Assembly: GCA_045537595.1 (NCBI GenBank)
Contig: JAZSPS010000047.1
Location: 1 to 57,899 of the forward strand
Direction: 5' to 3'
DNA from: Eubacteriales bacterium
GTDB taxonomy: Bacteria > Bacillota > Clostridia > Oscillospirales > CAG-272
DNA: 57,899 nucleotides
In this document: piece by piece, positions 44,392 to 57,899 of the stretch
How the letters are laid out: the number at the start of each line of letters is the position of its first letter
Position numbering within the stretch: position 1 is the stretch's first letter
Translations under genes and position numbers: made by a program
Notes under the pieces: model-generated
What the model was told of the DNA's origin: nothing
Databases searched by the model: none
The model's input: only the letters and a program-made list of their open reading frames with translations

Positions 44392-46255
44392 TTTGAAGCA
44401 TAAAGATAAAGCTGCCTCCGCTTCTTACGCCGCAAAAAAAGCCATGGAGGAAAAAGCGCCAAAAATGAGCCGAGGCGCGAAAATGGCAGTGGTTCGACGG
44501 ATTTCCAAGTATTTGTTCCGACATAAAAGCATGGTGGTTCTATGCTTTTTGATGATGTTGACCTCCAACATTCTTGCCCTTGCGGCTCCCAAGCTTTCCC
44601 AAAGGGCGATCGATGCCATAGAGCCCGGTGTTGGACTGGTGGATATGAGAAGTGTGATCTTCTACTGTGTCATGATGCTTATTTTCTATGTTGTATCGGC
44701 AGCCCTCTCGTATATTTTGGCAATGATGATGGTTCGGCTCAGCCAAAAGATCATTTACACCATGCGCAAGGAGCTATTCGATCATTTGACCGAATTGCCT
44801 GTGGGATATTTTGATACCCACGCTACGGGGGAAATCATCAGCCGTATTTCCTATGACATTGACACGGTGAATACCTCCCTATCTCACGATCTGCTTCAGA
44901 TTGGAGCCAGTGTTGTGACTGTCATAGGCTCGCTGATCATGATGGCATCCATTTCTCCTGTTTTATTGCTTGTCTTTGCCATTACGGTTCCCATGTCCAT
45001 TCTTTATACCAAATACCGTTCCTCGCGTGTCCGGCCGCTTTTCCGCAAACGCTCTCAGAAGCTGGGAGAGCTGAACGGCTATGCGGAGGAAATGCTTTCG
45101 GGACAAAAGGCGATTCGGGCATACAGCCGTGAAAATGTAATTTCCAATCGATTTGATGAGAAAAACAAGGAGGCGGTCACCGCCTATTATCACTCGGAAT
45201 ATTACAGCGCTATGGTAGGTCCCACCGTTAATTTTATCAACAATCTATCCCTTTCTCTGGTGACCATGCTGGGAGGTATTTTCTATTTGTTCTTTTTGAT
45301 GAATGAGACGGGAAGCACGCAGATCCTCCCCATCCTTACCATTAGCTTAGGCGGTGTTTCGGCGTTTGTGCAATATTCGAGAAAATTCGCCGGACCCATT
45401 AACGAGTTTGCCAATATCGTCAGCGATCTGCAATCAGCCGCCGCTGCCGCGGAAAAGGTTTTTGCCGTTATTGACGAGGCGCCCGAAAAGCCCGACCGTG
45501 AGGATGCGGAGATCCTCGATCAGGTTCAGGGAAATGTGGAGCTGAGCCATGTTCGTTTTGGTTATGTGCCCGAGCGAACCATTATCAAGGATCTTTCCTT
45601 AAAGGTAAAAAAGGGAAATATTATTGCGATCGTGGGTCCTACGGGGGCGGGAAAAACCACCATTATCAATTTACTGATGCGATTTTATGACGTGAATGAG
45701 GGGAAGATTCTTGTTGACGGTAAGGAGATCGAGGGGATCACCAGAGAAAGTCTCCGAAAAGCGTATACCATGGTGCTACAGGAGACCTGGCTGTTTCACG
45801 GCACGATTTATGAAAATATTACATACGGAAAGGAGGGTGCCGACCGTGAGGCGGTGGAGCGTGTGGCGAAAATGGCACACATTCATTCCTATATTGAGAC
45901 CCTGCCTGACGGCTACGATACCATCCTTTCCGATGACGGTGTCAACATTTCAAAGGGGCATAAGCAGCTGATCACCATTGCCCGCGCTATGCTTGCCGAT
46001 TCGCCTATGCTGATTCTGGATGAGGCGACCTCTAACGTAGATTCCCGTACCGAACAGAAGATTCAAGCGGCAATGTACGCGCTGATGGAGGATCGGACCT
46101 GTTTTGTGATCGCTCACCGCTTATCTACCATTCAAAACGCCGATCTGATCTTGGTGGTGAAGGACGGAAATGTTATTGAGCAAGGAAATCACGGCGAATT
46201 GATGGCGAAGGAAGGCTTCTATTATTCGCTGTACCATTCACAGTTTGAACAATAA
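44384..46255 (+). CDS. ABC transporter permease/ATPase (exporter half-transporter 2)
   Basis: TMD plus NBD with Walker A GPTGAGKTT and Walker B LILDEATS. The signature is degenerate (ISKGHKQL). The start is tentative: TTG at 44384, 8 nt after GGAGG, overlapping the upstream stop. Confidence 0.85.
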   Translation: MSNLKHKDKAASASYAAKKAMEEKAPKMSRGAKMAVVRRISKYLFRHKSMVVLCFLMMLTSNILALAAPKLSQRAIDAIEPGVGLVDMRSVIFYCVMMLIFYVVSAALSYILAMMMVRLSQKIIYTMRKELFDHLTELPVGYFDTHATGEIISRISYDIDTVNTSLSHDLLQIGASVVTVIGSLIMMASISPVLLLVFAITVPMSILYTKYRSSRVRPLFRKRSQKLGELNGYAEEMLSGQKAIRAYSRENVISNRFDEKNKEAVTAYYHSEYYSAMVGPTVNFINNLSLSLVTMLGGIFYLFFLMNETGSTQILPILTISLGGVSAFVQYSRKFAGPINEFANIVSDLQSAAAAAEKVFAVIDEAPEKPDREDAEILDQVQGNVELSHVRFGYVPERTIIKDLSLKVKKGNIIAIVGPTGAGKTTIINLLMRFYDVNEGKILVDGKEIEGITRESLRKAYTMVLQETWLFHGTIYENITYGKEGADREAVERVAKMAHIHSYIETLPDGYDTILSDDGVNISKGHKQLITIARAMLADSPMLILDEATSNVDSRTEQKIQAAMYALMEDRTCFVIAHRLSTIQNADLILVVKDGNVIEQGNHGELMAKEGFYYSLYHSQFEQ

Positions 46256-46269
46256 ATCATTTTCATAGC

Positions 46270-46320
46270 AAAAAATTAGGGATCATCGCTCATGTGTTAT
46301 CCGCATGAAGCTATGATCTC
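46270..46320 (-). terminator. Intrinsic terminator of the aro supraoperon (possibly bidirectional)
   Basis: Imperfect 13-bp stem GATCATCGCTCATG (46281-46294) / CATGAAGCTATGATC (46304-46318). On the - strand it is followed by AATTTTTT. Confidence 0.5.
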
Positions 46321-46393
46321 TATGATTTTAATATCGGTTTCTATTGACTGTCCGTTCTTCGCTGTACGGTATCAAAAGACTTTGGGGTACGGT

Positions 46394-46813
46394 TTACGAG
46401 AAAAATTCCAGCGCTTTTTTATATCCCTCAAATCCGAGACCGCAAATGGTTTTTTTAGCCACCATAGAAACATAAGAATGTTGACGGAAGGATTCCCGAG
46501 CGTGAATATCTGACAGATGAACCTCTACGGTGGGAATTCCAACAGCCTTTAACGCATCCAGAATCGCCACACTGGTATGGGTGTAAGCCGCGGGATTGAT
46601 CACGATCCCCTCATAAACACCGTACGCCGATTGAATGATATCAACGATTTCGCCCTCATGATTGGATTGAAACAGCGTAACCTGATGGTTAAGCTCCTCT
46701 GCCGAGCCGCGGATATATTCCTCCAAGGCGTGAAAATCCTGTTTTCCGTATATGGTTGGCTCTCGGATCCCCAGCATGTTTAAATTCGGTCCGTTAATCA
46801 CTAAAATCTTCAT
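46394..46813 (-). CDS. aroQ: Type II 3-dehydroquinate dehydratase
   Basis: 139 aa starting MKILVINGPNLNMLGIREPTIYG. Confidence 0.95.
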   Translation of the reverse strand: MKILVINGPNLNMLGIREPTIYGKQDFHALEEYIRGSAEELNHQVTLFQSNHEGEIVDIIQSAYGVYEGIVINPAAYTHTSVAILDALKAVGIPTVEVHLSDIHARESFRQHSYVSMVAKKTICGLGFEGYKKALEFFS

Positions 46814-46837
46814 GTGCTTTCCTCATTCTTATTTTTC

Positions 46838-48097
46838 TTATCGTTTTTTTGCATGAGCTTTTAAGGCGTTCAGCATTGCCTCGGCGGTTTTCTCGGGAAT
46901 TTCGGTGCTTTGGATCCGAAGGTCGGCAAACCGTTCGTAGGCATCCTTACGTGCCTGATAAAGCTCCTCTACCGATCTTTGTTGGGAGAGGGGTCTGCCT
47001 CCTGTGGCAAGGCGTGAAAGCTCCCGTTCCAAGTATATAAGAATCCCGTTTTGATGTAAGGGAGCGTAGTTCTGCTCCCGAGTGACGGCACCGCCTCCGC
47101 AGGCAATAACCGTGCCGCTCATTTTTCCAAGCTCGCAAAGAACCTCATGCTCCATTTCACGGAAGCGGGGTTCTCCCAAGGCTTGGATGGCTTCCGCCGG
47201 TGTAATGCCATGGTGCTTTTCAAACTCTATATCCGCGTCATAAAAACGCCGTCCTGTCATTTCAGCCAAGTGTTGTCCCACCGTGCTTTTTCCGCATCCC
47301 GGCATACCGATCAGGATGATGTTATGGGTTTGCAGGGCGATTTTTTGAGTGATTTCCTCAATAATGCCTTCCTCTGCCTTATCTCCCGTGAAAAACTCAA
47401 ATGCCTTAACCGCCTGTGCCACCAGCATATACAGTCCGTTGATACAAGGGATCCCTCGCTGCTCCGCTTCTAAAAGAAGGGAGGTTCTGGCGGGATTATA
47501 AATGACATCCAGCACGCCGTGACAGTTGGGGAACATGGCAAGGCTGATCAATGATTTCCCGTTATTCGGATACATGCCCACGGGGGTTGCGTTTACGATG
47601 ACATCCGCATCGGAATGCTTGCCGATATTTTCATAATTATTTTCCAGATTCAGGTCAACCACAACGATTTCCGCGGCACCGCGGTCTTGCAAAACAGTTT
47701 GCACCGTCAGAGAGGCGCCTCCGTTTCCGAGGATCACCGCTTTTTTGTCTTTTACGTCAATGCCGGACGCGCTCAACATTCCATCAAATCCAAAATAGTC
47801 GGTATTATAGCCGTCAAGTCTTCCGTCCGCACGCCGAACAACGGTGTTTACCGCGCCGATGCGCTCTGCCTCCGCGGAGATGGAATTCAAAAAGGGGATT
47901 ACGGTCTTCTTATAGGGAATGGTAACATTGAAGGCATCAAAGCCGCCATTCAGAACAAATTCGCCCACTCCTTCGGTGGGGAGCTCCACCAGCTCATAGG
48001 TATAATCGGCGATCTCCGCATGGATCGGTCCTGAGAAGCTATGACCCAAATGCTCTCCGATCAGTCCGCATTTCATGTGCTGATATCCTTGTTTCAT
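46838..48097 (-). CDS. aroE/aroK: Bifunctional shikimate dehydrogenase / shikimate kinase fusion
   Basis: 419 aa. The N-terminal AroE domain has GLIGEHLGHSFS and NVTIPYK. The C-terminal AroK domain has the P-loop GMPGCGKSTVG. The ATG shares a base with the pheA stop (TGATG). Confidence 0.9.
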   Translation of the reverse strand: MKQGYQHMKCGLIGEHLGHSFSGPIHAEIADYTYELVELPTEGVGEFVLNGGFDAFNVTIPYKKTVIPFLNSISAEAERIGAVNTVVRRADGRLDGYNTDYFGFDGMLSASGIDVKDKKAVILGNGGASLTVQTVLQDRGAAEIVVVDLNLENNYENIGKHSDADVIVNATPVGMYPNNGKSLISLAMFPNCHGVLDVIYNPARTSLLLEAEQRGIPCINGLYMLVAQAVKAFEFFTGDKAEEGIIEEITQKIALQTHNIILIGMPGCGKSTVGQHLAEMTGRRFYDADIEFEKHHGITPAEAIQALGEPRFREMEHEVLCELGKMSGTVIACGGGAVTREQNYAPLHQNGILIYLERELSRLATGGRPLSQQRSVEELYQARKDAYERFADLRIQSTEIPEKTAEAMLNALKAHAKKR

Positions 48098-49242
48098 CAG
48101 ATTACCTCCGAATACGAGCCAAGATAGGAAAATTCATCACACTCATTCTCAAGCTCAGCCAACAATTGCGCCAGCTTAGGGGAATATACCGAGGCTTCCA
48201 GATCAAAATAGAACATAAATTCAAAGTCACGGTCGGGAATGGGGCGGGATTCCAGCTTGAGAAGATTGATTCCCAAGGCGTTGAAGCGAGAAAGCATGCG
48301 ATAGAGAGCGCCCGGCTTATGGGGCGTGACCACCATTAAGCTGGTTCGGTCGGCACCGGGATAGATCTCGGTTTTATTGGTGATACAAATAAAACGTGTA
48401 TGATTATTTCCATTGTCCTGAACCGCGGAGGAGACCACCTCCAAGCCGTATTGATCCGCGCAGGAGCGGGAGGAAAGGGAAGCCACATCATTTCGTTGTG
48501 ATTCGGCTACCATTTGCGCCGCTTTTGCCGTATTTTCCACTCGGGTAACCTTTACGTTGGGTCCCAAGGACGAAAGGAATGACGAGCATTGACTGATGGC
48601 TTGCTCGTGAGAAAAGATCTCTCGGATATCCGAGAGCTTTGTATTGGGCTTTGTCAGAAGATTATGATCGATTTTGATCCGTACCGTGCGTACGATACGG
48701 AATTTTCGGCTGATCATCAGATCATATACCTGCTTGACAGAGCCTGCGGTACTGTTTTCAATGGGGATCACGCCATAGCGGCACATGCCCGATTCAATGG
48801 CGGAAAAGACCTTTTCCCAGTTATTAAAGAACATGATATTTGGTACTTTAAAGAGGCGCTCCGCGGCAATTTGGGAATATGCTCCCTCTACGCCTTGACA
48901 CGCGACAATCGCCCGCTCGGGAAAGATCAGAGGCGTATTTTCGATGGCATCGGTAATTTCCGTATAAAGAGGAGAATGTATGCCAAGTCTGTTATACTGA
49001 TAAGAGCGTGACAGGTCTAAAATCGTGGAGTAAAGCGTACGGGAATACTCCTCAAATTCCTCTCCCGACAGCTCTGATATTTTTTCCAACAGGGCACGCT
49101 CACGGGAGGGATCCAACACCCGCATATGATTTTCCCGCTTATATTCGGCTACTTCCGCCGATACGTTCATGCGCTTGATGAACAGCGGAACCAGCTCACG
49201 GTCAATGCGATCAATTTGTTCTCTTAATTCTTTCAGTTCCAT
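48097..49242 (-). CDS. pheA: Bifunctional chorismate mutase / prephenate dehydratase
   Basis: 381 aa with an N-terminal CM helix (ELREQIDRIDRELVPLFIKR), a PDT domain (ACQGVEGAYS) and a C-terminal ACT domain (ESRP). Confidence 0.9.
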   Translation of the reverse strand: MELKELREQIDRIDRELVPLFIKRMNVSAEVAEYKRENHMRVLDPSRERALLEKISELSGEEFEEYSRTLYSTILDLSRSYQYNRLGIHSPLYTEITDAIENTPLIFPERAIVACQGVEGAYSQIAAERLFKVPNIMFFNNWEKVFSAIESGMCRYGVIPIENSTAGSVKQVYDLMISRKFRIVRTVRIKIDHNLLTKPNTKLSDIREIFSHEQAISQCSSFLSSLGPNVKVTRVENTAKAAQMVAESQRNDVASLSSRSCADQYGLEVVSSAVQDNGNNHTRFICITNKTEIYPGADRTSLMVVTPHKPGALYRMLSRFNALGINLLKLESRPIPDRDFEFMFYFDLEASVYSPKLAQLLAELENECDEFSYLGSYSEVI

Positions 49243-49274
49243 AATTTTTTATCCTTTTTTATAACGATAAGCTT

Positions 49275-50459
49275 TTATGTGTGTTTTTTTCGAAATCCCA
49301 AATATGCCATAACAAGGATCAATATGGGGAAGAAAATAGACAGTAAAAAGGGAATTTTTAAATTATTTCCGAACGCCTCGGCGATCCATCCGACTGCCGT
49401 GGGACCCACCATGCAGCCGATGTCGCCCGCCATGGCGAGAAGAGCGAACATTTTAACTCCTCCCCAAGGAACTCCGGCTGAGGCGAGGCTATAGGTTCCC
49501 GGCCACAAAATTCCCACCGAAAGTCCGCATAACGCGCATCCGCAAAGAGCGAGCAGAGGCCAAGGAGACAGGGCGGCGATCAGAAAGGATATAATGCAGA
49601 GGAGAGATGAAAAAACAATAAACCGAAGAAGATTGATGCGCCCTCCTGATTTTCCGTATATCACTCGGGCAGAGCCCATAAGGATGGCAAACAGGCAGGG
49701 ACCCAGAATATCTCCCACGGTTTTAGAGACACCCAAGCCCGACTCCGCAAAGCTGGATGCCCACTGTCCCATGGCTTGCTCTGCCGCGCCCGCGCAAAAC
49801 ATCATAATGAAAAAGAGCCAAAAGATCCCCGATCGGAAAAGAGAATGGGAATGTTCCTTTTGCGGATCCTCAAGAGCTTCCAGCGAATAAATGGGGACAA
49901 AGCAAAAGGCGATGGCGCCTACTGTGGGAATGATTGCCCAAAGGCAGGAAAGAATCCGCCAATGCCCGATTCCCGCCACACTGAAAAATACAGTGGAGAG
50001 CAACACCACGCCAGCCAGCCCCCAGCTGTAAAAGGAATGGAGCAAGCTCATTGCTGAGCTTTTTTCATCGGTTGGGCACGCCTCAACAATGGGACTGATC
50101 ATAACCTCAATGATCCCTCCGCCGATGGCGGCGATGATCACCGAGATCATCAATCCCATATAAGGGGAGGGGAGCGCCTCGGGAAGCCAAGCGAAGCCTG
50201 TCATACCTACAACGGCGCATAAGTGTGCGAGGATGACCGAGCCCCGTGTGTTAAACTTTTTTGAATATTTTGCCATGATCGCGTCAGAAAGCAATTGCGT
50301 TAAAAAGCTGATGGCGATGAGCAGACTGATCTTTCCCATGGAAATATGATAGGTGTTTTCAAATGTGATAAAAAGAAGGGGAGCGAAATTAATGGTGATT
50401 GCCTGAGTCAGGTAGCCGATATATGCCGCTCGGATCGTGTGTTGCGCTGTAAGTTTCAT
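49275..50459 (-). CDS. MFS transporter
   Basis: 394 aa from the ATG at 50459. About 12 hydrophobic segments. It is embedded between aroC and pheA. Confidence 0.8.
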   Translation of the reverse strand: MKLTAQHTIRAAYIGYLTQAITINFAPLLFITFENTYHISMGKISLLIAISFLTQLLSDAIMAKYSKKFNTRGSVILAHLCAVVGMTGFAWLPEALPSPYMGLMISVIIAAIGGGIIEVMISPIVEACPTDEKSSAMSLLHSFYSWGLAGVVLLSTVFFSVAGIGHWRILSCLWAIIPTVGAIAFCFVPIYSLEALEDPQKEHSHSLFRSGIFWLFFIMMFCAGAAEQAMGQWASSFAESGLGVSKTVGDILGPCLFAILMGSARVIYGKSGGRINLLRFIVFSSLLCIISFLIAALSPWPLLALCGCALCGLSVGILWPGTYSLASAGVPWGGVKMFALLAMAGDIGCMVGPTAVGWIAEAFGNNLKIPFLLSIFFPILILVMAYLGFRKKHT

Positions 50460-50530
50460 AAAAAACCTTTCTGATCTGACATTTTCTGATCTTTGCCAAT
50501 ATGCCAATCTATGTAAGGCAAAGCTTTTGG

Positions 50531-51625
50531 TTATATGTTATTCTCAGCAAGGAGAGCGTCGCAAACGGCAATGGCTGCCGCCGCTTCAAAAACAGGGACG
50601 GCGCGTAAAACGATGCAGGGATCGTGTCTTCCCTTGATGGAAAGCTTAACAGGTTGCATTGTGAACATATCTACGCTATCCTGTTCCTTAGAAATAGAGG
50701 GTGTGGGTTTCAGCGCGGCACGGAAGATCAGGGGCATTCCTGTACTCATTCCCCCCAGAATCCCTCCCGCGTGATTGGTTTTTGTAAAGATTCTTTTGCC
50801 GTCGGTATAAAAGGCATCGTTATTTTGAGAGCCTCGCAAAGCGGCGGAGCCAAAGCCCAGACCAAACTCAATTCCTTTTACCGCGGGAATTCCGAAAACG
50901 ATGGAGGAGATACGGTTTTCCATACCATCGAACATATGCTCTCCCAATCCCGCGGGAAGTCCGATCACGGCGCACTCTACAATGCCGCCAACAGAATCTC
51001 CCTCGGCACGGACTTCTTCTATCAGTTTACGCATTTTTTTGCCTTGTTGCTCATCCAGCACGGGAAAATCCTGCCGAGCTTCCAATATATTCAATTCCTT
51101 TTCACTTACATTCGCGGTATGGAAGGGAAGATCCCCAATACCGCCGATCGCGTACACATGGGCGGCGATCCGAATATTTTTTTGTCTGAGATATTGCAGG
51201 CATATTCCCCCCACAGCGCAAAGAGGGGCAGTCAATCTCCCCGAAAAATGTCCGCCGCCCCGAAGATCTACCGCCTCACCGTATTTCATGCGTGCCGCGT
51301 AATCCGCGTGAGAGGGGCGTGGGATAAAGGACAAATTGGAATAATCGGAGGATCGCTGGTTCGTGTTTCGTATAATTACGTGCAATTCCTCTCCGTTCAG
51401 GGTACAATTGTTTTCCACACCCGAAAGAAATACAGGCAGATCCGCCTCTTTTCTTGGCGTTGACAGGGAGTTTTGTCCCGGCGCGCGGCGCTTCATAAAT
51501 TGGAGTAGCTTTTCCATATCAAAGGTAAAGCCCTTGGGCAGACCCGTAAGGATCGCTCCGATCTCGGGATCGTGAGAACCGCCATAGACCGATAGATTGA
51601 TTTTTTTTCCGTAATTGGTGGACAT
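50531..51625 (-). CDS. aroC: Chorismate synthase
   Basis: 364 aa from the ATG at 51625, with YGGSHD, GGGHFSGRLTA and KGRHDPC motifs. Confidence 0.92.
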   Translation of the reverse strand: MSTNYGKKINLSVYGGSHDPEIGAILTGLPKGFTFDMEKLLQFMKRRAPGQNSLSTPRKEADLPVFLSGVENNCTLNGEELHVIIRNTNQRSSDYSNLSFIPRPSHADYAARMKYGEAVDLRGGGHFSGRLTAPLCAVGGICLQYLRQKNIRIAAHVYAIGGIGDLPFHTANVSEKELNILEARQDFPVLDEQQGKKMRKLIEEVRAEGDSVGGIVECAVIGLPAGLGEHMFDGMENRISSIVFGIPAVKGIEFGLGFGSAALRGSQNNDAFYTDGKRIFTKTNHAGGILGGMSTGMPLIFRAALKPTPSISKEQDSVDMFTMQPVKLSIKGRHDPCIVLRAVPVFEAAAAIAVCDALLAENNI

Positions 51626-51727
51626 GAGTATTCCTTTCCGCAAAGTCTATTATACATTTTGTGTATTTTTTATCTTACTTATCCGATGCATCCGACAATC
51701 ATGGGGGATTTTCAAAGTCTCAAAAAT

Positions 51728-52993
51728 TTAAATCGTTTTGATGATTTCCAATCCCAGTTCTGCCATATCGTCCCAAAACGCGGGATAGGATTTTGCCGCG
51801 GCTTGCGCGTTTTCCACAGTTACAGGGGAATGGCATACCACCGAGGCAACAGCGGCGCTCATGGCAATGCGGTGATCGCCAAAGGAGGACACGGTTCCGC
51901 CCAAAAGCTCTTTTTTTCCGTAGATGATCAAACCGTCCTCGGTTTCGCTTACGTTAGCGCCCAGTGTATTTAATACGGTACGCACCGTGACAAGACGGTC
52001 ACTTTCTTTAATTCTGAGACGGGCGGCGTTTCGGATCACGGTTTTACCCTCCGCTACCGAAGCAACGGTGGCAAGAATGGGAACCAGATCGGGGATTTGC
52101 GACGCGTCGATCTCAATTCCGCAAAGCCGAGCGGGGCTTACGGTGACAGAGTCTTGCGTTTCTTCTGCCAAGGCGCCAAAGCGCTTCAGCAGTGTCACAA
52201 TGGCTTGGTCTCCTTGTCGGGATTCCGAATTTAGACCGCAAACGGTGACAGGGGCTTTTCCCAAGGCTCCGAGACACAAGGAAAAGGCGGCGTTGGACCA
52301 ATCTCCTTCTACCGTTGCCTCGCCGGGAGAACGAAGTCCGTTATTTTCACGAATTTCAATTTTTTCCATATGACGGATGGCATAAAGTCCGAATTGAGCC
52401 AGTGCTTCCATTGTCATATCCACATAGGGAGCGGATTCCAGCTTCCCCTCAATTTCAATGATTCCTGTTTTTCCCGATATTGCCAGCGCGAAAAGCAATC
52501 CGCTGATAAATTGAGATGATACCGAGCCTGAGATAGAAAAACGATTTCCCTCAAGCTTTCCTTTACACAGCAATGGATTGGAGCCTATGGGAGAAAATCG
52601 AATGCCGTGCGCCTCCAATTCCTCACGAAGGGGAGAGAGGGGGCGTTGCGGCAGACGTCCTGCCATAACAAAGGAAGCGTCAAGTCCCAGCATGCACGTG
52701 AGGGGAAGCAAAAAACGCAGGGTAGAGCCGCTTTCGCCGCAGTCCAGTGAGGGGGAGTGTGTCAGTGTGCCCACAGGTGTGACCCGAAAAACGGGATCCT
52801 GCCGTACGATTTTTGCGCCAATGGCATTCAAACAGCGAACGGTAGCGGTAATATCCTCATTGATCTCCTCACAGCGGATGACGGTCTCCTTATCCGCGAA
52901 AGCGGCACAAATCAAAAGTCTGTGGGCGGCGGATTTAGACGCAATGGCTTTGATCGTTCCGTGAGGTGAGGAGGGTAAGATGCATACCTTCAT
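51728..52993 (-). CDS. aroA: 3-phosphoshikimate 1-carboxyvinyltransferase (EPSP synthase)
   Basis: 421 aa with KSAAHR, GESGSTLRFL and DHRIAMS motifs. Confidence 0.93.
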   Translation of the reverse strand: MKVCILPSSPHGTIKAIASKSAAHRLLICAAFADKETVIRCEEINEDITATVRCLNAIGAKIVRQDPVFRVTPVGTLTHSPSLDCGESGSTLRFLLPLTCMLGLDASFVMAGRLPQRPLSPLREELEAHGIRFSPIGSNPLLCKGKLEGNRFSISGSVSSQFISGLLFALAISGKTGIIEIEGKLESAPYVDMTMEALAQFGLYAIRHMEKIEIRENNGLRSPGEATVEGDWSNAAFSLCLGALGKAPVTVCGLNSESRQGDQAIVTLLKRFGALAEETQDSVTVSPARLCGIEIDASQIPDLVPILATVASVAEGKTVIRNAARLRIKESDRLVTVRTVLNTLGANVSETEDGLIIYGKKELLGGTVSSFGDHRIAMSAAVASVVCHSPVTVENAQAAAKSYPAFWDDMAELGLEIIKTI

Positions 52994-52998
52994 TTCTT

Positions 52999-54060
52999 TT
53001 ATACCTTTTGTAATCCTTTCTCGATGAAGTCGGAAAGCTCATGGATGGGAATGGTGTACAGTCGGCTGTCACCGATCCCAAAAGGAACGACCAAGGTAAT
53101 ATCGTTGCCGTTTCGCTTTTTATCCGCTGAGGCGGCATGCGCCAGCTCCTCCGCGGGATAAGCGCAGCTTACAGGCAGGTTATGAGCCTTCAGGATACGG
53201 ATCAGCGCGTCAAGATCCTCCTGGGGGCAGATGCGCATATCTACTGCCGCACGGGTGACGATCACCATACCGATTGCAACCGCACTGCCGTGAGAAACGC
53301 TGAATTGTGAGCATGCCTCAATGGCATGTCCCACGGTATGGCCAAGGTTCAGAAGCTGTCGGGTTCCCCGATCAAACTCGTCTCCCTCTACCACATGGCT
53401 CTTATTTATAACGCAACGCGCGATCACCTCTTCGATCTGCTCTCGTATCCCGTTTTTTAGTATCTCAAAGAAGGGCTTATCGTTGATCACGCCGTATTTG
53501 ATAACCTCGGCGCAGCCATCGGCAAAGATTTGAGGAGGAAGGGTATCAAGCGTTGTGTAATCGCAGAGGACCAAGGAGGGCTGATGAAACGCTCCCGCAA
53601 GATTTTTTCCGGCTTTTAGGTCTACCCCCGTTTTTCCTCCCACAGAGGAGTCTACCGCGGCAAGCAGTGTGGTGGGGATCTGAATAAAAGGGATCCCCCT
53701 CAGATAAATGGCTGAGGCAAAGCCTGTCAGGTCGCCTACAACCCCACCGCCCAAGGCGACCATAGCCGCTCCGCGTGACAGACGGTTTTCTGCCAAAAAC
53801 TCCAAAAGCGCAACCAGCGTTTCTGTACTTTTGGAGCTTTCCCCGTGGGGAATGACAAAGGATATAACCTCAAAGCCTTTGGCTTCCAAGGAACGCTTGA
53901 CCTTATCCATATACAGCGGAGCTACGTTGTCATCCGAGACCACGCACAGACGACAGGGTTTCCCCAATGTTTCCAAGCAGTATTCTCCCGAATGGCTCAG
54001 CAGATCATCCCCGATGAGAATTTCATAAGAGGAGGATGCGTTTACGGTTATTTTTCTCAT
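52999..54060 (-). CDS. aroB: 3-dehydroquinate synthase
   Basis: 353 aa with GGGVVGDLTGFA and NLGHTVGHAIE motifs. Confidence 0.93.
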   Translation of the reverse strand: MRKITVNASSSYEILIGDDLLSHSGEYCLETLGKPCRLCVVSDDNVAPLYMDKVKRSLEAKGFEVISFVIPHGESSKSTETLVALLEFLAENRLSRGAAMVALGGGVVGDLTGFASAIYLRGIPFIQIPTTLLAAVDSSVGGKTGVDLKAGKNLAGAFHQPSLVLCDYTTLDTLPPQIFADGCAEVIKYGVINDKPFFEILKNGIREQIEEVIARCVINKSHVVEGDEFDRGTRQLLNLGHTVGHAIEACSQFSVSHGSAVAIGMVIVTRAAVDMRICPQEDLDALIRILKAHNLPVSCAYPAEELAHAASADKKRNGNDITLVVPFGIGDSRLYTIPIHELSDFIEKGLQKV

Positions 54061-54127
54061 AATTTTCTATCCTTGCTTAAATTTAAATGAAACTTAAAGG
54101 TTGATTATCAAGTTTTCGGAAGGAAGA

Positions 54128-54958
54128 TCATCCGTCGATCTCTTCCTTGGCGATTCTGCCGTCACGAAGCAGTGCGCAAAGTGTTTCCGCGTCCTCCGAC
54201 GAAATGGCATTCCGATATTCGGTCAAAGAGCGGATCATGGTATCAAGCTCAAAAAGCAGGGGATCTTTATTTTCCAAGAAAAGCTCGGTCCACATTTTTT
54301 CGTTTAGCCATGCCACACGGGTCATATCCTTATAGCTTCCCGCGGAAAAGCCCTTATGCCCGTGGGCTGAGGGGCTTTTCACGTATGCGTTGGACACCAC
54401 ATGGGCAAGCTGTGAGGTAAAGGCGATCATGCGGTCATGGGCATCCGCTGTGGTAACGGAAAATCTTCCGAAGCCCGCGGGGGCGAGGAGCTTTCGTATT
54501 TTATCGATGAAGGAAATATCGTCATAGATGGGAGGAACCAATACCATAGGCGCGTTTTTGAACAGGTTTTCCTTTGCGTACTTGATTCCCGAATACTGTG
54601 TACCTGCCATGGGATGTCCGCCCACAAAGGTAAATCCGTATTTTTTTGCCAAGTCAAAGCCACATTCACAGATCTGTTTTTTTGTACCGCAGAGGTCAAT
54701 CACCACCGTGTTCCGTGAAACGATGGGGGCGATCTCTTCCAGATATTCTATTGCCTTTTGCGGATAAAGTGCGATCAATATCAGGTCACAGGAGGGAAGC
54801 GTTTCATGATTGAGCACCCCGTCGGTTATACCGGCAAGAGCGGTATAGCCAAGGGTTGCCTCGTTAATATCATAGCCCAGAACGGTATGTGAGCTTGATT
54901 TATAAGCCTTTGCCATGGAACCGCCGATAAGGCCAAGTCCGCAGATTCCTACAATCAT
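54128..54958 (-). CDS. tyrA: Prephenate dehydrogenase
   Basis: 276 aa with the N-terminal Rossmann motif ICGLGLIGGS and the GGHPMAG motif. Confidence 0.9.
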   Translation of the reverse strand: MIVGICGLGLIGGSMAKAYKSSSHTVLGYDINEATLGYTALAGITDGVLNHETLPSCDLILIALYPQKAIEYLEEIAPIVSRNTVVIDLCGTKKQICECGFDLAKKYGFTFVGGHPMAGTQYSGIKYAKENLFKNAPMVLVPPIYDDISFIDKIRKLLAPAGFGRFSVTTADAHDRMIAFTSQLAHVVSNAYVKSPSAHGHKGFSAGSYKDMTRVAWLNEKMWTELFLENKDPLLFELDTMIRSLTEYRNAISSEDAETLCALLRDGRIAKEEIDG

Positions 54959-54978
54959 ATCAGTTCTCCTTTACAATG

Positions 54979-55983
54979 TTACTGCTTTACCGCGTCCAGA
55001 ATTTTTTGAACCGAGGAGGTTACGTCCGCAAAAGCTTCGGGGGTCAAGGATTGGGGACCGTCACAGAGCGCATGAGAGGGGTCATTATGAACCTCGATCA
55101 TTAAGCCGTCGGCACCGCATGCCGCCGCTGCCAGAGCCATGGGCTTTACAAGCTTTGCAACCCCTGTCGCGTGGGAGGGGTCGATGATAATGGGAAGATG
55201 AGTAAGCTCATGGAGCAGGGGAACCGCGGAAAGATCCAAGGTGTTCCGAGTGTAGGTCTCAAAGGTACGGATTCCTCTTTCACAGAGAATCACGTTTTCG
55301 TTGCCTCCAGCCATAATATATTCCGCCGACATCAGCAGCTCCTTTAGGGTATTGGCAAGTCCTCTCTTCAGGAGGATCGGCTTATTGGTACGTCCCAATT
55401 CTTTTAGAAGCTCAAAATTTTGCATGTTTCTCGCGCCTACCTGAATGACATCCACATCCTCAAAGAGGGGCAGGTGATTGGCGTTCATGATCTCTGTAAC
55501 AATGGGCAGCCCTGTTTCCTTTTTCGCTTTGAGCAAAAGCTCGATTCCTTCCGCCTTCAGACCCTGAAAGTCGTAAGGAGAGGTACGGGGCTTAAACGCG
55601 CCTCCTCGCAGCATCGTAGCGCCTGCCTTTTTTACCGCGTGGGCAACCTCCATGATCTGTTCCTCGCTTTCAATAGAGCAGGGACCAGCCATAAAAGCGA
55701 AAATATCACCGCCCACCGAGGTGTTTCCCACGGTGATCACACTGTTGTCGGGATGAAACTTACGGTTCGCGCTCTTAAAGGGTTCGCTGATTCTTTTTAC
55801 AGAATCTACAATTTCCAAGCTTTCCAGAAGCTCCTCGTCGATTTTTGCGGTATCTCCTATCAATCCGATTACGGTATGCATGCTTCCTTTGGAAATATGC
55901 ACGTCTAAGCCCTGTGTTTTCAGCCACGCGGAAAGATTTTCGATTTGCGTGTCTGTGGTTCCTTGTTTCAATACTGCGATCAT
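54979..55983 (-). CDS. aroF: 3-deoxy-7-phosphoheptulonate (DAHP) synthase, type I-beta, with an N-terminal regulatory-like domain
   Basis: 334 aa from the ATG at 55983, which has AAAGGAG upstream. A roughly 70-aa ferredoxin/ACT-like N-terminus (MIAVLKQGTTDTQIENL) is followed by a KDO8PS-like barrel (GPCSIES, DPSHA). Confidence 0.9.
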   Translation of the reverse strand: MIAVLKQGTTDTQIENLSAWLKTQGLDVHISKGSMHTVIGLIGDTAKIDEELLESLEIVDSVKRISEPFKSANRKFHPDNSVITVGNTSVGGDIFAFMAGPCSIESEEQIMEVAHAVKKAGATMLRGGAFKPRTSPYDFQGLKAEGIELLLKAKKETGLPIVTEIMNANHLPLFEDVDVIQVGARNMQNFELLKELGRTNKPILLKRGLANTLKELLMSAEYIMAGGNENVILCERGIRTFETYTRNTLDLSAVPLLHELTHLPIIIDPSHATGVAKLVKPMALAAAACGADGLMIEVHNDPSHALCDGPQSLTPEAFADVTSSVQKILDAVKQ

Positions 55984-56057
55984 GATTTTTCTCCTTTGAT
56001 CTTTTTTGATCATTTAATTTTTCTGTGTGAGATTTTGGGACGAATGCCTCATCCACA

Positions 56058-56101
56058 GAAAAAATGAAGCCTTCGCGGTGTTTTTTCACCGGAAAGGCTT
56101 C
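56058..56101 (-). terminator. Leader (attenuator) intrinsic terminator upstream of aroF
   Basis: On the - strand: GAAGCCUUUCCGGUG, AAAAAA loop, CACCGCGAAGGCUUC (13 of 15 positions paired), followed by AUUUUUU. It lies about 75 nt upstream of the aroF ATG and 75 nt downstream of the leader ORF stop. Confidence 0.75.
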
Positions 56102-56176
56102 AAGAAGTTTTTTTATTTATCGGAGAATCCGAAATTTAAAACCAGATGAACCTGAAATCCGCGCCAAAAAGCACCT

Positions 56177-56245
56177 TTATTTACTACTCATGTTAAAGTA
56201 ATAAAAATAAAGGTAATAAAACTTGTTGGCAAACAATTGGTTCAT
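56177..56245 (-). CDS. Phe/Tyr-rich leader peptide (22 aa) of the aro supraoperon
   Basis: Hand translation of the - strand: AAAGGAG, then 8 nt, then ATG. The product is MNQLFANKFYYLYFYYFNMSSK*. It has 4 Phe and 5 Tyr and no Trp. It is too short for the ORF track. Confidence 0.65.
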   Translation of the reverse strand: MNQLFANKFYYLYFYYFNMSSK

Positions 56246-56299
56246 CGCCTTTTCTCCTTTGCTGTGTTTTGTATCTTTTTCGTTAAATACGATAAAATT

Positions 56300-56328
56300 A
56301 GTTTATCACCGTATTGTCTATTTGTCAA
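56300..56328 (-). promoter_or_regulatory. Sigma-A-type promoter of the aro supraoperon leader
   Basis: On the - strand: TTGACA (56328-56323), 17-nt spacer, TAAACT (56305-56300). Confidence 0.65.
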
Positions 56329-56393
56329 GAGATTTTTATAAAAAAATTATTTTTTATGAAAAATTATACAATGTATGTGAGGCATATGGAAGC

Positions 56394-57344
56394 TTACGCG
56401 AAAGGGGCGTATTCAAAAATACGGATCATTCCCATTGACACTGAGGAGGCGATTTCCTCATCGGAAAGAGCGGACACGGTTTTATCGCTTTTTAAGTTGA
56501 GAAGAGTAGCCATTGCGTCTCGGATCTGAGGCTTACCGCCGATAATTACGTGTGTCGCTTCGCTTTGACAGATGGTCTGAAGCTCACCTGAAAGAACGGC
56601 ACCCATAAAGAAGCTGTAGGTTTGCACAGCGTTCGCTCCAAAAAGATTTTTTAGAATTCTCGTTTTAAAAAGAGCTTCATTCAGTCCATGGAAAAGGGTA
56701 TAGTCATAGCCTTTGACCAGATAATCCTTGTCGGTTTCCGTCACGGAAAGGTCCACCGCGTCACGGAGGATGGTATTTTGCGAAAGAGAGGCGATCATCT
56801 CACCGGTGAGCATGGTGGTAAATTCTCGGATTTTCCCTTCTTTGTCTGTTCGAATAATTTTTGAGTGAGAGCCGGGAAGAACATAAATACAATCTTCTCC
56901 GAATGAATTTTTATTCATCAAGCCCATAAGCTCGGTCTCCTCCCCGCGCATCATGTCGCAAAGAGCCAGATCCCTGCTGTCTGTACGCACACCCGCTATA
57001 AATACGAAGGGAATGGAGGAAATATCGGGAAGAGATACCTGCTTCATTCCCTGATGAAGCTCGCGGATTCCGATGGGGCAGATCAAATGGTCCACCTTAT
57101 ACAGTCCGAATTCCGAGGTGATCATTCCCGAGGCAAGAATTCGGAGAACATCCTTTTCACGCAGCTTGTGTCTTGTCAAAAGCTCAGAAATGGTGTCTCT
57201 TACGGCAACACGCAGAGCGTTGCTGTTTCCTATACTTTTTTGCGCGCCTATGGATAGCTTGACAGTATCGGTTGTTTTTTTGTTTTCCACCAAGCTGACA
57301 CGAGTATTGGTGGTTCCTCCGTCGATGGTAATATACCGTTGCAT
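56394..57344 (-). CDS. 2-dehydro-3-deoxygalactonokinase-like (DgoK family) sugar-acid kinase
   Basis: 316 aa with the N-terminal ASKHA-type motif ITIDGGTTNTR and the internal VLPGSHSK motif, which resemble DgoK. Confidence 0.6.
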   Translation of the reverse strand: MQRYITIDGGTTNTRVSLVENKKTTDTVKLSIGAQKSIGNSNALRVAVRDTISELLTRHKLREKDVLRILASGMITSEFGLYKVDHLICPIGIRELHQGMKQVSLPDISSIPFVFIAGVRTDSRDLALCDMMRGEETELMGLMNKNSFGEDCIYVLPGSHSKIIRTDKEGKIREFTTMLTGEMIASLSQNTILRDAVDLSVTETDKDYLVKGYDYTLFHGLNEALFKTRILKNLFGANAVQTYSFFMGAVLSGELQTICQSEATHVIIGGKPQIRDAMATLLNLKSDKTVSALSDEEIASSVSMGMIRIFEYAPFA

Positions 57345-57385
57345 GTCTTCTCCTTGTTTTGATGATTATAATGCGCGATTGCTTT

Positions 57386-57898
57386 TTATTGATTTGGGGG
57401 CAATCTGCGTCCCAATCGGCTGACGGTCATTTGTAAGCGGCTTTCGCTATCGATCAATGAGCCGTTTAAAATATCTTCTTCGGTTACCTTTGCCATTAAA
57501 ATCTCTCGGGCATGGTCGGTATAATCGGCTTTCTCGCTATAAAGCGCTCCTCTTTCATGATCATAAACAATATAGAGGTATCCGTCCTTTCCCTCGGTTA
57601 CGTCGGGATAGGATACGTTGGCTCTGCCATCCAGAAGCAAGAAGCCCTCATATGTCTTTCCGTCGTCGCGTGAGATCATGGCTGTCAGGTTATTCCGTCC
57701 CGCAAAGCGGTAGTGATTGATCAAAAGGATATTGCCTGAGGTCAGTCTTCCGATATAGAAGCGGGAATTGGGGCCACCAAAACCGCAGTCAAGCGCTTTT
57801 GACCATGTTTTTCCTCCATCGAGGGAGGAGGAAAGTGCTATACCGTATTTGGTGCGAATGTACATTTCCAAGCTGCTGTCTTGCTTTTCTAAAAGCAT
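57386..57898 (-). CDS. BNR/Asp-box repeat (sialidase-like) protein, C-terminal fragment (5' end outside window)
   Basis: Asp-box motifs SLDGGKTW and SRDDGKTY. The frame is open to the window edge. Confidence 0.65.
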   Translation of the reverse strand: MLLEKQDSSLEMYIRTKYGIALSSSLDGGKTWSKALDCGFGGPNSRFYIGRLTSGNILLINHYRFAGRNNLTAMISRDDGKTYEGFLLLDGRANVSYPDVTEGKDGYLYIVYDHERGALYSEKADYTDHAREILMAKVTEEDILNGSLIDSESRLQMTVSRLGRRLPPNQ

Positions 57899-57899
57899 G

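Follow-up and report, generated by a model that had tools for sequence, protein, structure and literature searches.

Aromatic and other amino-acid genes of Bacillota are usually controlled by T-boxes. Leader-peptide attenuators for His are also described in this phylum, at hisZ/hisS of the Bacillus cereus group and at the his operons of Peptostreptococcaceae and Erysipelotrichales (PMC2965389, PMC9413887), and one for Leu is reported at ilv-leu of Staphylococcus aureus (PMC5794164); leader-peptide attenuation therefore exists there alongside T-boxes. In Corynebacterium glutamicum, the aroR leader with its Phe-Tyr-Phe codons is reported to control aroF and, on experimental grounds, to be a ribosome-mediated attenuator (PMC11802643, citing Neshat 2014). 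Another aroF-associated motif, uORFC-13-1, is known from 24 sequences, all of them from Acholeplasma or from environmental DNA without assignment (Brewer et al. 2021, PMC8632094); it combines a promoter, a ribosome-binding site, a start codon, a Phe-coding U-run and an adjacent intrinsic terminator, and ribosome-mediated attenuation was proposed for it (PMC8632094). Here, a short leader open reading frame (ORF) rich in Phe and Tyr (F/Y) codons, located between a promoter and aroF, was analyzed in a 57,899-nucleotide (nt) stretch of DNA from a Eubacteriales bacterium of the class Clostridia (contig JAZSPS010000047.1; hereafter the window). Very probably, this leader acts as a classical ribosome-mediated transcription attenuator and responds to the charging of tRNA-Phe and tRNA-Tyr. 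Coordinates refer to the minus strand of the window.

The initial annotation of the window had proposed the architecture of a ribosome-mediated attenuator at this position, and the proposal is supported, as its sequence-level features are all present and are conserved across dozens of related genomes. The promoter (TTGACA, a 17-nt spacer and TAAACT, read on the minus strand) and the AAAGGAG located 8 nt before the ATG of a 22-codon, F/Y-rich ORF were found where that annotation had placed them (Table 1). The promoter at 56328-56300 is the top sigma-70-like site in 45000-57899 (10/12 matches plus the TG), and the AAAGGAG-N8-ATG unit (56260-56243) lies 55 nt downstream of the -10 element. Eight of the nine codons in the leader run encode Phe or Tyr, and the leader is the sole short ORF scoring more than six F/Y per ten residues in the whole window on both strands. 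Sensor and output match, as had been claimed: the leader has Phe and Tyr codons and no Trp codon, and the nine downstream genes include pheA and tyrA and, by Pfam, no trp genes.

The intrinsic terminator that had been placed before the first structural gene folds with an energy of -22.5 to -23.3 kcal/mol (z = -4.7) and lies 75 nt before the aroF ATG. Its 5' arm spans 56101-56087, its loop 56086-56081 and its 3' arm 56080-56066, followed by an A and six U residues; a simple terminator scan misses this hairpin owing to an internal mismatch, while direct folding finds it. The AU-rich hairpin noted earlier at 56214-56173 also folds (-15.8 kcal/mol, z = -4.3) and is the inner part of a longer imperfect hairpin, P1 (56246-56145; -36.2 kcal/mol for a fold of 56247-56144), and the leader as a whole is far more folded than shuffled sequences (z = -7.6). 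The two strands of P1 are referred to as segments 1 and 2, and the partner of segment 2 within the terminator as segment 3. In the antiterminator, GGUG/UUUUU/GC/CGGA/AGGUUCA of segment 2 (56175-56147) pairs with UGAAGCC/UCCGGU/AAAAA/CACC of segment 3 (56102-56077). The antiterminator strand starts with GGUGCUUUUUGGCGCGGA, runs to GGUUCA and begins 2 nt past the leader stop codon. Among the weak antiterminator candidates of the initial annotation, the second, GGUGCUUUUU with AAAAACACC, survives as the core of this longer pairing.

By folding, the antiterminator excludes the terminator, and the pairing of segment 2 with the leader codons excludes the antiterminator; the three mutually exclusive helices of such a switch (1:2, 2:3 and 3:4) are present, with segment 2 switching partner. 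The free RNA folds into P1 plus the terminator. An RNA of 56183-56077, representing a stalled ribosome and a polymerase just past the terminator loop, folds into the antiterminator (-29.0 kcal/mol), and an RNA free only from 56164, representing a ribosome on the stop codon, folds into the terminator.

In the proposed mechanism, transcription would start just 3' of the TTGACA/TG-n-TAAACT promoter, probably about 7 nt 3' of the -10 element, and a ribosome would load at AAAGGAG-N8-AUG and translate the 22-codon leader. When Phe or Tyr is scarce, the ribosome would stall in FYYLYFYYF and occupy segment 1, leaving segment 2 free to pair with segment 3 as soon as the latter is transcribed; with the antiterminator formed, no terminator would arise and the polymerase would read into aroF-tyrA-aroB-aroA-aroC-MFS-pheA-aroEK-aroQ. 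When Phe and Tyr are both plentiful, the ribosome would reach the UAA, where its footprint would cover the start of the antiterminator strand, and P1 (the 1:2 pairing) would re-form after ribosome release. With either the footprint or P1 in place, the terminator would form and transcription would halt before aroF. If the leader is not translated, P1 would form, followed by termination. Leader translation, stalling, premature termination in vivo and the respective weights of Phe and Tyr are features that we infer from the sequence.

Table 1. Features of the aroF leader region and the downstream genes in the window.
Feature	Position	Strand	Details
-35 hexamer TTGACA	56328-56323	minus	Same in 14 of 15 aligned subgroup sequences; L010 differs
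Extended -10 element TGATAAACT (TG-n-TAAACT)	56308-56300	minus	TG located 1 base 5' of TAAACT (56305-56300)
Leader Shine-Dalgarno AAAGGAG	56260-56254	minus	8 nt before the ATG at 56245
Leader ORF MNQLFANKFYYLYFYYFNMSSK	56245-56177	minus	22 codons plus stop codon UAA (56179-56177)
Codon run FYYLYFYYF	56221-56195	minus	Codons 9-17; 4 Phe, 4 Tyr, 1 Leu; proposed stall zone
Segment 1 (5' strand of P1)	56246-56196	minus	Leader codons from the AUG onward; by folding and pair counts
Segment 2 (3' strand of P1)	56189-56145	minus	Holds the stop codon (56179-56177) and the antiterminator 5' strand (56175-56147)
Segment 3	56102-56077	minus	Terminator 5' arm and loop plus the initial 4 nt of the 3' arm; partner of segment 2
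Intrinsic terminator	56102-56059	minus	Stem-loop 56102-56065 plus U6 at 56064-56059
Post-terminator hairpin	56063-56018	minus	Terminator U-tract forms its 5' strand; -13.4 kcal/mol, z = -3.0
aroF Shine-Dalgarno AAAGGAG	55997-55991	minus	Before the aroF ATG at 55983
Genes predicted to be regulated: aroF, tyrA, aroB, aroA, aroC, MFS transporter, pheA (CM-PDT-ACT), aroE-aroK fusion, aroQ	46394-55983	minus	Assigned by Pfam

Relatives of the window's AroF, sampled at one genome per species, comprise 80 loci (65-86% identity), nearly all from Clostridia. A short ATG-started ORF with at least six F/Y in 10 residues, located no more than 300 nt upstream of aroF, occurs at 58 of these 80 loci (72.5%), versus 0.25% of 3553 background tiles of 300 nt from the same loci; the short ORF and its F/Y run are thus kept in relatives that carry aroF, as the attenuator proposal had anticipated. 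With a threshold of eight F/Y in 10 residues, the leader is found at 34% of the aroF loci versus none of the 3553 tiles. Leader-bearing loci are labelled Oscillospiraceae, Lachnospiraceae, Acutalibacteraceae and Anaerovoracaceae, cultured strains are among them, such as Hominicoprocola fusiformis CLA-AA-H269 (L008), Angelakisella massiliensis Marseille-P3217 (L035) and Pseudoflavonifractor sp. AF19-9AC (L027), and the family covers three orders of Clostridia. A strong hairpin followed by a U-tract lies between leader and aroF at 63 loci (the window and 62 others, with one near-duplicate removed); these terminators have a median energy of -19.6 kcal/mol, and their median distances are 97 nt from the codon run and 34 nt to aroF. 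Folds of single loci share a common form, in which UUUGCAGC and the UAC/UUU run pair with AAAGUAAAAGUGAUUUNUGCUGCAAA. Conserved peptide motifs, FAA and SDLCC, were considered as marks of a functional peptide and rejected, as they are simply what the paired strands of the outer P1 stem encode.

Roughly one in five of the 80 aroF loci is without an F/Y leader (L003, L017, L029, L036, L039, L058, L060, L067, L069, L071, L073, and L078), including metagenome-assembled genomes (MAGs) of Bacteroidaceae and Treponema and some Clostridia. Locus L058 has a GTG-started ORF (5 F/Y) and a hairpin of -5.5 kcal/mol, and was left out of the structure analyses because both are weak, not for any resemblance to PheA. 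The apparent leaders of L030 and L043 (MFYFD...EKI) were rejected because they are the C-terminus of PheA, as aroF follows pheA in these loci. The leader of L064 is found some 400 nt further upstream, with the terminator about 300 nt before aroF, and L025 has an F/Y ORF only at -478 to -400.

The closest relatives form a subgroup of their own. The search for AroF homologues listed 120 matches with 86-100% identity, headed by the window's own protein; the others originate from MAGs and metagenome assemblies. Eleven subgroup loci (L096-L106; AroF 86-92% identical to that of the window) were examined, and these were aligned with the window and L001, L002, and L010 to give a 15-sequence subgroup alignment. 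The same type of leader is found in all eleven loci (e.g., MNRSFANKYYFLYFYYFTK, MNNIFANKYYYLYFYYFTDK, and MSANLSFANKFYYLYCFYFKK). The -35 element, TG-n-TAAACT, Shine-Dalgarno sequence, segment 2 and terminator are kept in all 15 sequences but L010, which deviates at several of them; the -10 region appears as GTG(A/C)TAAA(C/A)T in 14 of the 15, L010 again being the exception. In this alignment, pairing amounts to 89% in the antiterminator core helix and to 92% in the terminator, the latter with compensatory changes, and P1 has a compensatory change (GCCAAC/UUGGCG versus GCAAAC/GUUGCG).

These comparisons bear on a non-regulatory interpretation, in which the hairpin ends the transcription of the upstream 2-keto-3-deoxy-galactonokinase-family gene (Pfam DGOK) or acts as an insulator, and the F/Y ORF occurs by chance. 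The region is AT-rich, U-rich frames readily yield Phe and Tyr codons, and the leader ORF is called as a gene in none of the 11 subgroup loci, where the intergenic region of about 310-400 nt before aroF is recorded as empty, all of which would suit a chance ORF. However, a conserved near-consensus promoter stands between the upstream gene and the leader, and the F/Y runs show the enrichment upstream of aroF described above and extend over three orders of Clostridia. The upstream gene also differs among close relatives (DGOK, chromate transporter, DUF436, Mem_trans, F420 ligase, or a sigma factor) while the leader-aroF unit is constant, and therefore the promoter-leader-terminator unit belongs to aroF and travels with it. 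The non-regulatory interpretation is hardly tenable and is effectively refuted by the comparative data.

Several features of the family point to translation of the leader. An ATG-started ORF with a Shine-Dalgarno sequence passes through the run in the F/Y frame at 61 of the 63 leader loci (window included), compared with one and none in the other two frames. Phe accounts for 17.9% of leader residues, Tyr for 16.5% and Trp for 0.1% in these 63 loci, with leader lengths of 16-47 residues. Synonymous codons are both in use within the runs (Tyr: UAC 142, UAU 105; Phe: UUU 188, UUC 25), and the length, position and flanking residues of the run vary while its F/Y richness is kept. In 86% of loci, the stop codon falls within a span that opens 16 nt before the antiterminator strand and closes 16 nt after the end of that strand.

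In Bacillota, antitermination usually works through a protein or a tRNA. A switch that works without translation is an alternative, in which the UAY/UUY repeats and P1 are bound by a Phe/Tyr-responsive protein (TRAP/PyrR-like), an uncharged tRNA or a ligand, and the ORF is incidental. Such a switch would be in keeping with an RNA that is strongly structured (z = -7.6) and conserved, and the conservation of FAA and SDLCC is partly at the RNA level because these motifs are by-products of the outer P1 stem strands. Moreover, aromatic-linked riboswitch candidates 5' of aro operons have been proposed in Lactobacillales (PMC4448216). On the other hand, an incidental ORF does not account for the confinement of ATG and Shine-Dalgarno sequence to the F/Y frame, for a run that is set at the amino-acid level with both synonymous codons in use and that keeps its F/Y richness as its length, position and neighbours vary, or for a stop codon held near the antiterminator strand. 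There is also no T-box or other relevant Rfam match in the window, in 20 leader-bearing loci or in 17 further loci. The translation-independent switch is therefore regarded as unlikely, and the ribosome-mediated attenuator is preferred.

The Rfam results were obtained at two levels of stringency. With covariance models at a permissive E-value of up to 10, the region 55700-56700 gave no T-box and none of the leader-peptide families, namely the leaders for Phe, Trp, His, Thr, and Leu of enterobacteria and for leu/phe of Lactococcus. At the gathering score, nothing relevant was found in the window, the 20 leader-bearing loci or the 17 further loci, most of which are leaderless. The earlier statement that the locus has no T-box thus agrees with the scans of the window and of 37 related loci. 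Replacement of the leader by a T-box at the leaderless loci was considered and is unsupported, as no T-box or other Rfam element appeared in these scans. Six leader peptides, including that of the window, matched zero families when compared with NCBIfam hidden Markov models at E-values up to 10.

The alternative pairing of segment 2 recurs throughout the family. For 64 loci (window included), the best duplex of segment 2 was computed for two partners, the leader codons and the 5' arm plus loop of the terminator. The stretches of segment 2 used in the 1:2 and 2:3 pairings overlap by at least 4 nt in 94% of these loci. The duplex of segment 2 with the cognate terminator has an energy of -13.7 kcal/mol, versus -10.1 kcal/mol with the terminators of other loci (63 loci, with the near-duplicate L041 removed). 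This preference for the cognate terminator has a permutation z of -11.7, none of 10000 permutations is as good, and the window ranks third of the 63 loci. Compensatory antiterminator pairs are seen in L032 (AGAAAUUUGUGCUGCA with CGCCGCACGAAUUUC) and L047 (UCCGGCUGUGAAGCA with AGCUUUCAGCCGGU), and further ones occur in L061, L062, L033, and L046.

RNAalifold on a plain MAFFT alignment recovered the outer terminator stem only, and for this reason the helices were defined by hand and their pairs counted. Pairs were counted on the plain MAFFT alignment of 40 leaders, with partners slid by 1-3 columns as a control. For P1 and the terminator, 80% of cells are paired versus 37-51% with slid partners, and 133 cells have changes on both sides versus 48 in shuffles, with none of 500 shuffles reaching as high. 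The antiterminator is 75% paired versus 27-58% with slid partners. Compensatory stem changes in relatives, as would be expected of a conserved switch, were thus found in the form of cognate pairing, double-change cells and single-locus examples.

Nascent chains rich in aromatic residues are able to make contact with the exit tunnel of the ribosome, and a leader of this composition could in principle be translated to another end, either as a TnaC-like arrest peptide responding to free Phe or Tyr or as an upstream ORF that tunes mRNA stability or aroF translation. The conserved post-terminator hairpin in the window's subgroup would be compatible with such a mode, as it is not needed in the classical model. 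However, an arrest peptide needs fixed residues, whereas only the F/Y density is kept here and the order of residues, the length (16-47) and the flanks vary. Induction by free Phe or Tyr would also be the wrong logic for a biosynthetic operon, and the conserved 1:2/2:3/3:4 geometry with a terminator directly after the leader is what the sensing of codon supply needs. These other modes are considered quite improbable in comparison with attenuation by codon supply.

Independent searches led to the same type of element. A covariance model of the leader-codon hairpin (R1), built from 36 loci without the window and its subgroup, has exactly one match in the 57.9-kb window, at 56155-56248 on the minus strand, over the full model length and with 31.5 bits (E about 1e-3, by a rough calibration). 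Among near relatives, R1 matches L098, L101, and L103-L106 with E-values of 1e-8 to 1e-5 and is weak on L102, L096, L001, L002, and L010 (E 0.01-0.8), and L097, L099, and L100 are not listed at E-values up to 1. A metagenome search with a narrow motif, in which aroF was not used, returned 15 loci, nine of them with an F/Y leader; aroF, or aroF-tyrA, comes next in seven of the eight motif-found leader loci with enough downstream DNA.

The other six motif matches were rejected as unrelated, five being one AT-rich region 5' of a GAPDH gene and one lying inside coding DNA. The GAPDH-upstream matches (L082, L088, L092, L093, and L094) have the form MTKVAINGFGRIGRLAF..., about 110 nt before the gene, and apparently belong to one organism group; they were taken as chance matches because they are without an F/Y ORF. 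The motif-found leader that is not followed by aroF is in L084 (OGMF01000420.1, motif on the minus strand at 3375-3418), where a complete promoter-Shine-Dalgarno-leader-terminator unit with the leader MSILVFAAAYYYFYFIYSVSKSDFCCN precedes genes for a PaaK-like phenylacetate-CoA ligase and for the alpha subunit of an indolepyruvate:ferredoxin oxidoreductase. Between this terminator and the ligase gene there is a second promoter-like site, and L084 is the single locus of this kind seen. The reach of the family may thus extend beyond aroF, for example to this ligase/oxidoreductase operon, which may bring arylpyruvates made from arylacetates into a Phe/Tyr-starvation regulon.

Several points weigh against reading the leader as an attenuator, or limit what can be drawn from the evidence. 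Bacillota are classed at the phylum level as having ‘runaway’ transcription, with the polymerase outpacing the ribosomes (PMC13323073), and this weighs against attenuation because attenuation depends on a ribosome that follows the polymerase closely through the leader. The model presumes a pause that synchronises ribosome and polymerase, and a pause at P1 could keep the two close. In addition, C. glutamicum aroR is reported to respond to Phe limitation only, despite its Tyr codon (PMC11802643), and dual sensing of Phe and Tyr is therefore not guaranteed. At equilibrium, the terminator conformer of the ribosome-free 3' part is the more stable (-34.9 versus about -29 kcal/mol), and so read-through must depend on co-transcriptional kinetics; by analogy with the textbook cases, kinetic read-through is normal for this class of attenuator. 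In the window, 130 nt separate the end of the codon run from the terminator end, which is long for the family (range 68-132, median 97). Within the subgroup, most antiterminator pairs do not vary and are thus conserved rather than covarying. Finally, shuffle controls of pair counts can be exceeded through the kinship of the sequences alone, and the slid-partner control and the comparison of cognate with non-cognate terminators are stronger evidence than the shuffles.

The initial annotation had described a nine-gene aromatic operon with pheA and tyrA and without trp genes. Pfam bears this out except that one of the nine is a transporter and not a pathway enzyme. By Pfam, the first five products are DAHP synthase, prephenate dehydrogenase, DHQ synthase, EPSP synthase and chorismate synthase, and the last four are an MFS transporter, a chorismate mutase-prephenate dehydratase-ACT protein, a shikimate dehydrogenase-shikimate kinase fusion and a type II dehydroquinase. 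The nine genes probably form one operon, because they share one direction and the gaps between them are short. The MFS transporter gene (410 amino acids; 49275-50507, minus strand) sits between aroC and pheA, and its product might carry an aromatic compound or a pathway intermediate into or out of the cell. The shikimate dehydrogenase-kinase fusion (419 amino acids; 46838-48097, minus strand) contains the Pfam domains Shikimate_dh_N, SDH_C, and SKI, and the start of its gene overlaps the pheA stop codon.

Further features flank the leader on both sides. An A/T-rich tract, AAAAAATAATTTTTTTATAAAAATC, is located at 56331-56355 (minus strand), directly 5' of the -35 hexamer, and relatives of the window have a T-run followed by an A-run at this position. 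The tract may be an UP element, as would suit a strong promoter that leaves the setting of output mostly to attenuation. On the other side, the stem of the post-terminator hairpin is UUUUUCUGUG...CACAGAAAAA in the window, and near relatives have an equivalent hairpin with other stems (CCGUG/CACGG, CUUGCGUG/CACGCAGG, and CGUGUG/CACACG). This hairpin is confined to the window's subgroup and is missing in most of the wider family, in which just some 34 nt lie between terminator and aroF. In the MAFFT alignment of the subgroup, 7 of its 10 pairs show changes in both partners, although just 60% of cells are paired. A GUGAAGC/AUGAGGC stretch downstream offers the terminator 3' arm a further pairing partner in some relatives.

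The Phe/Tyr leader of aroF in Clostridia is apparently uncatalogued and widespread: no description of it was found in the literature, Rfam 15 or NCBIfam, although the literature coverage is incomplete and a prior mention is possible. It is slightly more likely than not that it represents a large family of RNA and leader peptide that serves as the main control of shikimate, Phe and Tyr synthesis in gut and rumen Clostridia (Oscillospiraceae, Lachnospiraceae, and Anaerovoracaceae), with one ribosome reading the charging of both tRNA-Phe and tRNA-Tyr. If so, the family would be a widespread, naturally occurring example of functional coupling between transcription and translation in a phylum classed as ‘runaway’ (PMC13323073). 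The leader provides a concrete, mutable test system for whether and how coupling arises in the leaders of Clostridia, a pause at P1 being one candidate. It also fills an annotation gap, namely the cis-regulator of the aromatic operon in many abundant gut and rumen Clostridia, and is a broad addition to the few true leader-peptide attenuators of Bacillota, a phylum in which T-boxes are the expected solution. The near-equal mix of Phe and Tyr codons offers a natural case for one leader integrating two amino-acid signals. The element, about 235 nt from the probable transcription start to the U-tract, would be a compact switch inducible by Phe/Tyr starvation that might serve the engineering of anaerobes, and the leader bears on the interpretation of the aromatic-metabolite output of the microbiota.

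The family also reaches the order of Clostridioides difficile, through Anaerovoracaceae loci L062 and L070 and Emergencia loci L014 and L024. In C. difficile 630, premature termination is reported in the aroF 5' untranslated region, with no known riboregulator (PMC8237595; bioRxiv 10.1101/2020.08.10.244764), and this is the one experimental hint from the class. An F/Y leader in that region would give the family experimental support.

Compared with described systems, the mechanism is textbook; the leader does not constitute a new category and would hardly come as a great surprise to specialists. Like pheL-pheA, and like trpL, hisL, thrL, and leuL, the window has a promoter-proximal ORF rich in codons for the end products. 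It shares with the pheL-pheA class the 1:2, 2:3, and 3:4 hairpins, the last being an intrinsic terminator, and a stop codon beside segment 2, and read-through would likewise lead into a biosynthetic operon with pheA. It differs in that no Rfam leader family matched even at E-values up to 10, in that Phe and Tyr codons are about equal in the window family instead of serving one amino acid, and in that the downstream genes cover the whole shikimate pathway and both terminal branches from DAHP synthase onward instead of pheA alone. The host, moreover, belongs to the class Clostridia of Bacillota, whereas that of pheL is a gamma-proteobacterium.

The aroR leader of C. glutamicum resembles the window in placing Phe and Tyr codons before an operon that opens with a DAHP synthase gene. 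However, aroR is actinobacterial and has only the Phe-Tyr-Phe triplet, versus 8-9 F/Y in 9-10 codons in the window and its relatives, and Tyr is ineffective there. The two leaders, compared by description only, are likely to be of independent origin. The window leader also fits the architecture described for uORFC-13-1, again as compared by description only; both are linked to aroF, and the host of uORFC-13-1 falls, like that of the window, within the wider low-GC Gram-positive radiation. Unlike the window leader, uORFC-13-1 is described as encoding ‘at least one phenylalanine’, with Tyr unmentioned (PMC8632094). T-boxes likewise read the charging of a specific tRNA and choose between terminator and antiterminator in a 5' leader, but they bind the uncharged tRNA directly and without translation. 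The His and Leu attenuators of Bacillota have the same succession of leader, antiterminator and terminator, and most of them were predicted by comparative analysis too. They serve other amino acids and operons, each in a handful of genomes, whereas the window family occupies about three quarters of the sampled aroF loci, in Oscillospiraceae, Lachnospiraceae, and Anaerovoracaceae.

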